From Patescibacteria group bacterium (GTDB taxonomy: Bacteria > Patescibacteriota > UBA1384 > XYA2-FULL-43-10): a DNA stretch of 32,000 bases. The stretch covers positions 30,001 to 62,000 of the forward strand of contig JBAYVT010000002.1 of assembly GCA_041674405.1 (NCBI GenBank), given 5' to 3'. A program made the position numbers and the translations under genes. How positions within the stretch are numbered: the stretch's first letter is position 1; each line of letters starts with the position of its first letter. The notes under the pieces were generated by a model, which was not told where the DNA came from, did not search any database, and was given only the letters and a program-made list of their open reading frames with translations. This document shows positions 1 to 31,372 of the stretch, one piece after another.

Positions 1-673
1 CTTCAACCAAGACTTTGTCATCGTAATAAAGCGCGACTTCAATTTTATTTTCTAGATCCTTCTCATCCTTCACTTTCGCAATGCCGATTGAGGATCCAAG
101 ATGTACGGGTTTCACAAAAACCGGCCATTTCATTTTTTGGATTCGATCGACAATGAATTTTTTATTCGAATCCCAATCTTTTTTACGGAAAACTCCATAT
201 TTAGTTGTCGGAATTCCATTTACTTCACAAAGTTGCTTGGTAAGTGCTTTATCCATTGAAATTGCCGAGGACGCCACATCACAACCGACGTAGGGAACAT
301 CCAACATCTCAAACAATCCCTGTATTGTCCCATCCTCGCCATATGCTCCATGAAAAGCCGGAAAAGCGAGATCGATTGTGATCGATTTCCCAACAATCCC
401 CTTTTTCTTAAAGACCATTTTCCCGCGCGAATTCTGAAGGTCGAGAAGGTATTGTTTGAAGGAGGTTTTTTCTTCTATCCTCACCTTGGGATCGGTAAAA
501 CTGGCAAGTTTGCCCAAAGATTCATCAATCATCCATTCACCATCGCGCGTGATATATACTGGAACTACATCATACCCTAGTCCACAAAGTCCGGAAATTA
601 TCAACTGGCCGGTAATAATTGAAACATCGTGCTCGGTACTCCGGCTGCCAAAGAATACACCAATTGTTTTCAT
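1..673 (-). CDS. ddl: D-alanine--D-alanine ligase (N-terminal ~224 codons; gene runs off the left window edge)
   Basis: Hand translation of the minus strand from ATG 673..671 gives MKTIGVFFGSRSTEHDVSIITGQ...AFPAFHGAYGEDGTIQGLFEMLDVPYVGC...WPVFVKPVHLGSSIGI, a typical Ddl ATP-grasp pattern. It is absent from the ORF track because no stop falls in the window. It starts 10 nt downstream of the murF stop. Confidence 0.85.
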   Translation of the reverse strand, partial: MKTIGVFFGSRSTEHDVSIITGQLIISGLCGLGYDVVPVYITRDGEWMIDESLGKLASFTDPKVRIEEKTSFKQYLLDLQNSRGKMVFKKKGIVGKSITIDLAFPAFHGAYGEDGTIQGLFEMLDVPYVGCDVASSAISMDKALTKQLCEVNGIPTTKYGVFRKKDWDSNKKFIVDRIQKMKWPVFVKPVHLGSSIGIAKVKDEKDLENKIEVALYYDDKVLVE

Positions 674-8995: not shown

Positions 8996-9064
8996 AATAT
9001 TCCCAACAATAAAATAATAATTTACTCGTATAGATTATCATATTAAGACTAGGATTGAAAGTCT

Positions 9065-9094
9065 GGTAGCACAGGCGGAACCGCCTGTGCTACC
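9065..9094. repeat. perfect 14-bp inverted repeat / hairpin (GGTAGCACAGGCGG AA CCGCCTGTGCTACC)
   Basis: The reverse complement of the right arm equals the left arm exactly. It lies 25 nt past the small-ORF stop on the minus strand. No U-tract follows on either strand. Confidence 0.8.
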
Positions 9095-9118
9095 GACGGC
9101 AGCAGAGGGTGTGGGACG

Positions 9119-9271
9119 TTATCCGGGCCAGTTGGCCGGATCGTTGTCGGGGTCGTAGGTGACTGGCTTAGCCCGTTTGCGGGCATCATTCAGGATGATC
9201 AACAGGTCGGCAAACGGCACATCGGGTACTGAGTCCGAAGCTACCTGGTAATCGCCGGCATAACCACACAT
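9119..9271 (-). CDS. hypothetical 50-aa acidic protein in a GC-rich island
   Basis: Hand translation: MCGYAGDYQVASDSVPDVPFADLLIILNDARKRAKPVTYDPDNDPANWPG*. AGGAGG lies 7 nt upstream of the ATG. 32 of 49 third codon positions are G/C. It falls below the ORF-track length cutoff. Confidence 0.4.
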   Translation of the reverse strand: MCGYAGDYQVASDSVPDVPFADLLIILNDARKRAKPVTYDPDNDPANWPG

Positions 9272-9324
9272 AAAACTACCTCCTGGTCCTTGATTCCCTC
9301 TTGCATTTTATATATCACTTTAGA

Positions 9325-30836: not shown

Positions 30837-30950
30837 AAACGATTCTCCTTTTTAACCTCCGCCTTACGATTTACCTCGGCCCGAAGATTTCGGGACGGGC
30901 AAAGGATTTTTTAATCTCGGCTCGCCCAAAGGACGAGACGGATGAGAAAG
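30837..30950 (-). promoter_or_regulatory. structured GC-rich 5' leader of rpsB (candidate S2 autoregulatory leader)
   Basis: Minus-strand hairpins are CCCGAA-AUC-UUCGGG (30880-30894) and CUCGUC..GGCGAG (30921-30937). The latter needs a G.U pair that would be a C-A mismatch on the plus strand, so the minus transcript is the structured one. The SD AAAGGAG follows. Confidence 0.4.
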
Positions 30951-31034
30951 GCGTGTGAATTTATTAACAATTAATTACTTTTAAGACATTATCATATTTT
31001 TTGGATAATTTCAATATTTAACCCGAACAATCCC

Positions 31035-31063
31035 TTGACATAATTTAAAAATATTGTTAAAGT
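31035..31063 (+). promoter_or_regulatory. sigma70-type promoter (TTGACA, 17-nt spacer, TGT-TAAAGT extended -10)
   Basis: Consensus -35 at 31035-31040. 17-nt spacer ending in TGT. -10 TAAAGT at 31058-31063. Confidence 0.6.
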
Positions 31064-31070
31064 CGTTTTT

Positions 31071-31251
31071 GTCGGTTTCGCGGGAGATCGAAACCTGACG
31101 GGGCGAGGGTTCAAGGAGTCCGCTCCAGTCTCCCGCCTAATGGTGGCGAAGCGAAAGCTTATTGCCGAGAGGCAATCGCAAGTAACCAATCTTGCCGCCA
31201 TCCCAAACATTAAACCGCCCATGGGCGGTTAAGCTTGCCTCTTTGGAGGCA
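31071..31251 (+). ncRNA. unclassified structured RNA upstream of tRNA-Ile (ends approximate)
   Basis: ~57% G+C by hand count (103/180). Helices: GGUUUCG/CGAAACC, whose loop CGGGAGA pairs with UCUCCCG at 31129-35 (a pseudoknot); GGAG-UCCG-CUCC; AAGC-GAAA-GCUU; AUUGCC-GAGA-GGCAAU; the closing helix AUGGUGGCGA/CUUGCCGCCAU; AACCGCC-CAUG-GGCGGUU; GCCUC-UUUG-GAGGC. Confidence 0.55.
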
Positions 31252-31328
31252 GGGTACGTAGCTCAGTTGGATAGAGCGTCTCCCTGATAAGGAGAAGGCC
31301 GGGGGTTCAATCCCCTCCGTACCCACCA
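31252..31328 (+). tRNA. tRNA-Ile (anticodon GAT), CCA encoded
   Basis: GGGTACG acceptor, GCTC/GAGC D-stem, anticodon loop CTGATAA, T-arm GGGGG-TTCAATC-CCCTC, CGTACCC-A-CCA. Confidence 0.95.
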
Positions 31329-31333
31329 CCCTT

Positions 31334-31372
31334 CCCTCTCTGCGCCTCGCGCAGAGAGGGTTTCCCGTTTTT
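31334..31372 (+). terminator. rho-independent terminator after tRNA-Ile
   Basis: 12-bp stem CCCTCTCTGCGC / GCGCAGAGAGGG with loop CTC, followed by TTTCCCGTTTTT. Confidence 0.8.

Follow-up and report, generated by a model that had tools for sequence, protein, structure and literature searches.

A GC-rich structured segment upstream of tRNA-Ile in a Berkelbacteria genome, tentatively interpreted as the leader of an accessory tRNA operon

What is the GC-rich, strongly folded stretch of noncoding DNA that stands directly upstream of a tRNA-Ile gene in the rpsB-rpmE spacer of a patescibacterial genome? The DNA analyzed here, referred to as the window, is a 32,000-nucleotide (nt) stretch of a Patescibacteria group bacterium (GenBank assembly GCA_041674405.1), corresponding to C2:30001-62000 of a source genome of 929 kilobases and 98.7% completeness, whose RpmE relatives carry the name Candidatus Berkelbacteria. 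Throughout, C1-C6 are contigs of this genome, L-numbers are contigs of its relatives, and R1-R3 are covariance models built here. An initial annotation of the window proposed that the segment encodes a promoter-driven, highly structured RNA of unknown class. We tentatively favor an interpretation in which the segment is a cis-acting 5' leader (a 5' external transcribed spacer) of an accessory, fast-evolving tRNA operon found in a narrow clade of Berkelbacteria; these 180 nt are unlikely to represent a new class of RNA that stands on its own.

The spacer measures 578 nt, from the start of rpsB on the minus strand (30836) to the start of rpmE on the plus strand (31415), and its plus strand holds, in order, a promoter, a GC-rich segment of 182 nt, tRNA-Ile(GAU), and a terminator-like hairpin. 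The promoter (31035..31063, plus strand) is of the sigma-70 type, with TTGACA at 31035-31040, a 17-nt spacer that includes TGT, and TAAAGT at 31058-31063 forming an extended -10 element. This arrangement had been described in the initial annotation and is borne out: 10 of the 12 consensus positions match, the TG extension is present, and the site is the top-scoring one of the region. Transcription is predicted to start near 31070. The TTGACA box is kept at the matching position in six relatives (L047, L050, L051, L053, L054, and L056). The tRNA gene (31252..31328, plus strand) encodes its CCA end, scores 72.6 bits with the tRNA model, and is the second tRNA-Ile(GAU) copy of the genome. Because 431 nt of the locus are identical across four independent assemblies, the locus is not an assembly artefact; SRR6484325, SRR22315508, and ERZ27247358 are among the DNA assemblies with the identical locus.

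The segment itself (31070-31251) has a G+C content of 57%, as first reported, whereas the accompanying description of the genome as strongly AT-rich was overstated, the contigs having 41-44% G+C. On the plus strand its minimum free energy (MFE) fold reaches -76.2 kcal/mol (z = -3.58), which none of 200 shuffles attains, and the antisense fold on the minus strand is weaker (z = -2.76). Among the G+C-rich runs of the genome that are free of open reading frames (ORFs), the element ranks 11th of 185. The MFE structure comprises five local domains with no stem closing the 5' end against the 3' end. The 5' hairpin H1 (31070..31100, plus strand) has the core GGUUUCG/CGAAACC and the loop CGGGAGAU. H2 (31101..31138, plus strand) consists of an outer helix, GGGCG-GGG/UCCCGCCU, around UUCAA and a GGAG-UCCG-CUCC hairpin. 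A four-way junction (31142..31202, plus strand) is closed by 7 base pairs (bp), GGUGGCG/CGCCAUC, and carries three linker-less arms, whose caps are GAAA, GAGA, and a loop of 8 nt, for a total of 22 consecutive mismatch-free base pairs. H6 (31213..31230, plus strand) is the perfect palindrome ACCGCCCAUGGGCGGU, and H7 (31236..31251, plus strand) is UGCCUC-UUUG-GAGGCA, ending at the base directly before the tRNA. The helices originally drawn by eye, namely GGUUUCG/CGAAACC, GGAG-UCCG-CUCC, the GAAA- and GAGA-capped arms, and two 3' hairpins, are thus all present in the MFE structure. For the junction, the two GNRA-capped arms stand and the proposed 10-bp closure does not, the MFE having the 7-bp helix plus a third arm, GCAAG/CUUGC. 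The 76-residue minus-strand ORF across the segment, which had looked like an artefact from the outset, has no Pfam match.

Does the segment belong to a known RNA family, or does it found a new one? The scan against Rfam 15 with cmscan, which the initial annotation had called for, yielded the tRNA alone at gathering thresholds; when the filters were made permissive, no relevant match appeared at E <= 10. Its remark that the segment shows none of the conserved motifs of ribonuclease P (RNase P) RNA, signal recognition particle (SRP) RNA, transfer-messenger RNA (tmRNA), or 6S RNA likewise agrees with the lack of any Rfam family match to the segment. Both the tRNA model and ARAGORN call only 31252-31328, and neither H2 nor the junction has a tRNA match at E <= 10. 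A BLAST search of the 301-nt locus against 61 relatives returned tRNA matches only, and R1, a covariance model built from the one sequence, had no match among 100 relatives. Within its own genome the leader is single-copy by self-BLAST, with no copy of the tRNA-Ile end. A metagenome scan with RpsB recovered only relatives at 68-69% identity or below, all without the operon. A phage or mobile origin was also considered and rejected: phage records match the tRNA only, and viral contigs, scanned twice for exact patterns, gave no match. The proposal of a new free-standing class therefore fares poorly, for these 180 nt have no detectable homologue outside their own strain, the models of relatives' leaders give no significant match, and the parts of the segment match, in order, the modules of an accessory operon.

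This operon was recognized by comparison of eight close relatives located by RpsB and RpmE homologues (77-93% identity), using contigs that cover the same spacer; these are short metagenomic contigs, and several of the module assignments for L047 and L054 were read by eye. Two relatives, L048 and L055, have a short rpsB-rpmE spacer and no tRNA. In L054 the promoter is followed by a leader of ~25 nt, tRNA-Ile, and tRNA-Pro(CGG), with the leader pairing with the trailer around tRNA-Ile. L056 has the promoter, a short leader, a tRNA-like unit with a closed anticodon arm, a four-way junction, a hairpin, tRNA-Ile, a second hairpin, and tRNA-Met. Behind the promoter of L050 come a 165-nt leader domain that we term leader-1, a tRNA-like unit, a junction, a hairpin, and tRNA-Ile, and the arrangement of L053 is longer: promoter, leader-1, tRNA-Arg, a tRNA-like unit with an 8-nt loop, junction, hairpin, tRNA-Ile, hairpin, and tRNA-Ala. 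L182 preserves the end of leader-1, a collapsed tRNA-like unit of 51 nt containing the palindrome TCCGCCAGTTGGCGGA, a junction, a hairpin, and tRNA-Ile. L051 has the promoter, leader-1, and a tRNA whose D-loop contains that palindrome. L047 has the promoter, a different leader, tRNA-Pro(CGG), a junction, a CCGCC hairpin, and, as read by eye, a mini tRNA-like unit of 64 nt ending in ACCA. The same promoter thus precedes tRNAs for Pro, Ala, Met, and Arg at this site in the relatives, together with tRNA-like units with 6- or 8-nt anticodon loops.

The rpsB-rpmE operon can be regarded as spare because the window's genome has another tRNA-Ile(GAU), a canonical gene in the 16S-23S rRNA spacer (C2:17215-17291, minus strand) that is 75% identical to the window copy. 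Cassette copies of tRNA-Ile are 70-81% identical among close relatives, compared with 84-99% across families for the rRNA-spacer type, and the cassette copy of L053 has an aberrant T-loop. Absence of the operon from two relatives and the fast divergence of its tRNAs therefore characterize it as a dispensable, fast-evolving accessory tRNA operon. Several side observations concern the tRNA genes themselves. The two tRNA-Ile(GAU) copies of the window's genome differ in all stems through compensatory changes, and the rRNA-spacer copy is followed ~130 nt downstream by a repeat of its 3' end. In L054 (660-790), the leader GUGUGAAU-A-GGU and the trailer ACC-(A)CCC-AUUCACAC, identified by eye, flank tRNA-Ile and could form a long processing stem extending the acceptor stem, in the style of rRNA processing stems. 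In another genome of the same order (G024; L026:1565-1729, minus strand), the grpE-dnaK interval holds tRNA-Pro(CGG), a strongly folded spacer of 165 nt, and tRNA-Ile(GAU), the last with an abutting hairpin, UGCC-GUAA-GGCA, directly 5'.

Three kinds of module recur in the relatives. Leader-1, an RNA of ~165 nt, stands directly after the promoter (L050:2600-2775(-), L053:131-296, and L051:62-243(-)); it has a 13-bp closing helix, GUUGUGAGUGGCG/CGCCAUUCACAAC, around three long arms, has no Rfam match, and shows compensatory changes at 13 of its 38 pairs among the three sequences. A mini-cloverleaf of 54-56 nt lies just upstream of the cassette tRNA-Ile (L050:2445-2500(-), L053:480-535, L056:246-300, L047:385-440(-), and L182:196-250), with a 7-bp closure, GGUGGYG/CRYCRCC, and three short arms without linkers; the five sequences are 100% paired and include three compensatory pairs. 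G-CCA follows the mini-cloverleaf in L050 and L053, and the CCA is not kept there in L047 or L056. The third kind are the tRNA-like units (L050:2523-2597(-), L056:151-225, L053:391-469, L051:1-60(-), L182:133-183, and L047:~265-330(-)). They include genes whose acceptor, D, and T arms are intact and whose anticodon arms, with loops of 4, 6, or 8 nt, are non-decoding, besides the tRNA with a palindromic hairpin in its D-loop, the collapsed unit of 51 nt, and the mini unit of 64 nt.

The order of 5' domain, tRNA-like unit, four-way junction with GGUGGYG, abutting hairpin, and tRNA-Ile recurs in L050, L053, L056, and L182, and with variations in L047. The window leader is best read as a miniature of this chain, running H1, H2, junction, H6, H7, and tRNA-Ile. 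H1 occupies the position of the relatives' leader-1 domain, and an H1-like hairpin, GUCGAUUUCGAC, was seen by eye before tRNA-Pro in L047; further along, 22 of the 30 nt at 31187-31216 are identical to the 3' end of leader-1 in L050. H2 is probably a collapsed tRNA-like unit, to judge from its alignment with that of L182: in each, acceptor-like 5' and 3' strands enclose UUCAA followed by a GC hairpin, and the junction is the next module. The alignment score of 35 is mildly significant (shuffles give 24.4 +/- 3.8, and 25 of 2000 reach 35), and a 12-mer of H2, CGAGGGTTCAAG, equals the T-arm of tRNA-Pro in L054. The 7-mer GUCUCCC common to the leader and the anticodon stem of tRNA-Ile was set aside as chance, ~0.75 shared 7-mers being expected by our own estimate.

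The junction shares with the mini-cloverleaves of L047, L050, L053, L056, and L182 its GGUGGYG closure strand, three arms without linkers, and position; it is their positional and architectural counterpart and not a proven member. H6 is a variant of a dispersed CCGCC-N3-8-GGCGG hairpin with 34 copies in the genome and 5 in a reversed control (e.g. C1:89937, C4:19511, C6:50958, and window 31215-31228), often as the perfect 16-mer TCCGCCAGCTGGCGGA. The same palindrome lies inside the tRNA D-loop of L051 and the collapsed tRNA-like unit of L182, and L047 has CCGCCUUCGGGCGG at the place that matches H6. Orthologues of H7 precede tRNA-Ile in L050, L053, L056, and L182, where one pair changes from U-A to C-G and pairing is kept. 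An abutting hairpin of this kind occurs at 1 of the 46 tRNAs of the genome (and at 22 of 400 random sites), which is why we regard it as a mark of the operon and not of the organism.

On this basis we favor, with reservation, the structured leader of an accessory tRNA operon. The promoter, fold, and composition are confirmed, the operon context and the recurring order of modules fit, and the alignment of H2 with L182 and the compensatory change in H7 point the same way. So do the compensatory pairs of the mini-cloverleaf and leader-1, which place the relatives' modules under structural constraint, the operon-specific abutting hairpin, and the presence of RNase P RNA in the genome (C1:230619-230938, located by a covariance model). 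Under such an arrangement the sigma-70 promoter would transcribe leader and tRNA-Ile as one RNA, and RNase P would cut at 31251/31252. Both steps had been presumed in the initial annotation, and given a good promoter, a canonical tRNA-Ile, and an RNase P RNA we judge them a sound inference. Compact, closed helices could keep the leader from mispairing with the tRNA, the 5' stem might protect the transcript start, and the released piece would end in the 3' hairpin. The leader would then act in cis, without a function in trans.

Several points weigh against this. The transcription start, the joint transcription with the tRNA, and the cleavage by RNase P are predicted steps. The window's junction is tied to the relatives' modules by its position and architecture, the scores of R2 (mini-cloverleaf) and R3 (leader-1) being not significant: R2, built from L047, L050, L053, and L056, gives the window junction 6.4 bits (E = 9.3 when the window is searched), with arms of different length and sequence, and R3 has no plus-strand match in the window at E <= 10. 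MAFFT could not align the window leader with the relatives' leaders. Generic alignment against 60 tRNAs gave best scores at the 95% level of shuffles, which is not significant, and a decayed tRNA diagnosed by such alignment was rejected at that shuffle-level score. The four copies of the window's leader are identical and offer no covariation in its helices. The leaders of L054 and L056 are only ~17-25 nt, which indicates that the operon can function without a long leader, and a hairpin touching position -1 might hinder RNase P instead of helping it. In 40 GTDB relatives, R2 and R3 found nothing real; the sole R2 match, C3:142956, was discarded as it sits in GC-rich coding sequence. A pattern scan for the mini-cloverleaf core was unspecific, with at least 120 chance matches in GC-rich genomes.

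A serious rival, serious because the operon is dispensable and in places decaying, is that the segment is neutral debris. It would consist of upstream tRNA or tRNA-like genes of a redundant operon, eroded through deletions and the insertion of GC-rich palindromic hairpins; its G+C content and folding would be inherited and not selected, and its sole fate would be to be cut off. The two relatives without the operon accord with this, as do the rapid evolution of cassette tRNA-Ile relative to the rRNA-spacer type and the L053 T-loop. Broken anticodon loops are common among the tRNA-like units, the palindrome TCCGCCAGCTGGCGGA lies in both the L051 D-loop and the collapsed unit of L182, and the members that have shrunk differ between lineages. 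Neutral decay would nevertheless hardly arrive at the junction of the window, with its 22 mismatch-free pairs and GNRA caps and no tRNA sequence, and the relatives' modules hold 100% pairing through compensatory changes. We consider debris less likely than the cis-acting leader.

The option of most interest, which we hold to be rather doubtful, is that the operon yields one or more stable RNAs acting in trans, either the ~60-nt junction or the whole 180 nt, for example as anticodon-less tRNA mimics that serve as decoys or scaffolds after release by RNase P. The downstream tRNA would then provide an RNase P-dependent 3'-end signal, as mascRNA (MALAT1-associated small cytoplasmic RNA) does for MALAT1, and tRNA-like elements for 3'-end processing have precedents (PMC8457004, PMC1920247). 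The strong promoter suits such a product, as does a layout that looks resistant to nucleases: the RNA would open with a stem and close with a hairpin that stops precisely at its predicted 3' end. In five relatives the tRNA-shaped junction architecture is kept before tRNA-Ile with compensatory changes, and G-CCA follows the mini-cloverleaf in L050 and L053. Against a role in trans, the sequence is private to one strain, loop sequences differ between the window and the relatives, CCA after the junction is not kept in L047 or L056, some relatives have no long leader at all, and no partner protein or target is evident. A broader version of the idea, to which we give still less credence, makes the rpsB-rpmE operon a hypervariable locus for trans-acting, RNase P-released mini tRNA mimics without anticodons, comprising the mini-cloverleaf, the tRNA-like units with closed anticodon arms, and the GNRA-capped junction of the window. 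If it were true, the mimics could be decoys for tRNA-targeting nucleases or partners of tRNA-binding enzymes, and the window leader would be their most reduced version.

A conformational switch or attenuator is a distinctly improbable alternative, built on the pseudoknot proposed in the initial annotation or on a long-range helix between its two strands. The H1 loop CGGGAGA (31081-31087) has a perfect complement, UCUCCCG, at 31129-31135, in the 3' strand of H2; pairing of the two strands in place of the local H2 helix might let a ligand or protein set read-through into tRNA-Ile or its processing. The complement, 7-8 nt long, is rare by chance (a loop finds a 7-mer complement elsewhere in 16 of 1000 dinucleotide shuffles), and just 1.5 kcal/mol separates a nested alternative fold (-74.5) from the MFE (-76.0). 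The pseudoknot duplex contributes -11.3 kcal/mol, however, and costs ~14 kcal/mol from the competing local helix GGGCG-GGG/UCCCGCCU, so the complementary loop of the original proposal stands while no stability is gained over the nested fold that it replaces; a pseudoknot between the H1 loop and the H2 3' strand is possible on these modeled energies. A switch further lacks a plus-strand terminator or anti-terminator inside the leader, finds no match to riboswitch or T-box models at E <= 10, and would rely on an element that is not conserved in relatives. The T-box (RF00230) and riboswitches as such were rejected on the same searches, the downstream gene moreover being a tRNA.

Least tenable, and already largely refuted, is a divergent housekeeping RNA (SRP RNA, 6S RNA, RNase P RNA, or tmRNA) that the Rfam models missed: an unassigned structured RNA is a natural candidate in a genome where SRP RNA and 6S RNA go undetected, but RNase P RNA and tmRNA (C1:250435-250826, by covariance model) are found elsewhere, Ffh and FtsY are undetectable both here and across 31 genomes from the order, the fold is a chain of local domains and not a 6S rod, and the element is missing from close relatives. 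Individual candidates were rejected accordingly. No RNase P RNA or tmRNA model matches the segment, both genes being on contig 1. The 6S RNA model (RF00013) has no match in the region or the genome, and the string of local domains is no rod with a central bubble. YrlA Y RNA (RF02553) has no match in the window, and no TROVE domain (Ro60/Rsr) occurs in the genome. SRP RNA is a tempting identity for a genome in which none is detected, and it was rejected because Ffh and FtsY are likewise undetectable in the genome and its order; where these proteins go undetected, an SRP RNA is not to be expected.

The apparent lack of an SRP is an observation in its own right, as no SRP pathway (SRP RNA, Ffh, or FtsY) is detectable in the window's genome or its order. 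The small (RF00169) and large (RF01854) SRP RNA models have no match in the region at E <= 10 and none genome-wide, the Ffh M domain (PF02978) and the SRP54-type GTPase domain (PF00448) have no match in the genome, and a six-frame scan of the genome revealed no gene with the SRP GTPase motif set G1+DTAGR+TKxDG. Across the order, RF00169 was found in none of 41 genomes and PF00448 exceeded its cut-off in none of 31, all control genomes being positive. Our literature search found no paper tying Berkelbacteria to SRP.

How does a structured tRNA-operon leader of the kind favored here compare with known systems? In Escherichia coli, RtT of the tyrT operon (RF00391) and the 3'ETS-leuZ sponge, derived from an external transcribed spacer (ETS), are by-product RNAs of tRNA-operon leaders and spacers. 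They share with the window a noncoding stretch under one promoter with a tRNA, split off by RNase P or other processing, as is presumed here, to leave a fragment that may persist. The window leader differs in being much longer, more structured, and built of tRNA-shaped modules, and in having, unlike RtT, neither a repeated tRNA end nor an RF00391 match (none in the region at E <= 10). Intergenic repeats of the small palindromic or structured type include repetitive extragenic palindromes and bacterial interspersed mosaic elements (REP/BIME), Correia elements, and Rickettsia palindromic elements. H6 resembles them as part of the dispersed CCGCC...GGCGG population, whereas the remaining leader is single-copy.

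The mascRNA of MALAT1 (PMC8457004) and the t-elements of plant mitochondria (PMC1920247) are experimentally demonstrated tRNA-like processing elements of eukaryotic or organellar origin. As in the locus described here, they are non-decoding, cloverleaf-like folds within a longer transcript whose ends RNase P and RNase Z can define, and the leader-trailer pairing around tRNA-Ile in L054 may be set beside them. Cleavage at the window junction is conjecture by comparison, and the Rfam tRNA model misses the junction. The accessory tRNA arrays of prokaryotes and phages comprise at least 20 tRNA genes, often on mobile elements (PMC4758250, PMC5966550). Like the rpsB-rpmE operon they are redundant, variable clusters, patchily present from one close relative to the next, and non-canonical or pseudo-tRNAs are frequent in them; the operon differs in having 1-4 tRNAs at a fixed chromosomal site, with matches in phage records to the tRNA only. 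On the features tested, the window leader belongs to none of the RtT/3'ETS-leuZ leaders, the tRNA-like processing elements, or the tRNA arrays.

Should the leader reading prove true, a GC-rich orphan RNA in the tiny genome of a member of the candidate phyla radiation does not have to be taken for an absent housekeeping RNA or for a riboswitch; a spare tRNA operon with a compacted leader can account for such a stretch. The locus would document tRNA genes shrinking to stable, tRNA-shaped modules while base pairing is kept, and would offer a natural series for studying the origin of tRNA-like RNAs and the processing of tRNA precursors in RNase-poor bacteria. For annotation, these stretches would be labeled as tRNA-operon leaders and not as unexplained intergenic islands.

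Other features of the window are of lesser bearing on the segment. Downstream of the tRNA, a terminator-like hairpin, CCCUCUCUGCG/CGCAGAGAGGG followed by UUUCCCGUUUUU (31334..31372, plus strand), was read from the sequence and would end the operon before the rpmE promoter; the terminator scan did not call it because its U-run is interrupted, and equivalent hairpins follow the last tRNA of the operon in relatives. On the opposite side, the rpsB 5' leader (window 30837-30960, minus strand) contains two blocks, CACACGCCUUUCUCA and AAGGCGGAGG, which are kept in all relatives and could close a helix beside the ribosome-binding site. Its fold is unremarkable (z = -1.15) and it has no Rfam match; it is possibly an autoregulatory leader for S2.

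The genome also contains further GC-rich islands. An intergenic island at window 8996-9324 (minus strand) has 62% G+C and a fold z-score of -4.2, with a 50-residue ORF (9119-9271) behind an AGGAGG site and a terminator hairpin of 13 bp. About a dozen additional ORF-free runs reach 60% G+C or more over 150 nt, and most of them harbor no known RNA gene; among these runs are C2:121038-121628, C2:104989-105406, C5:10358-10953, C3:151455-151989, and C6:40976-41622.

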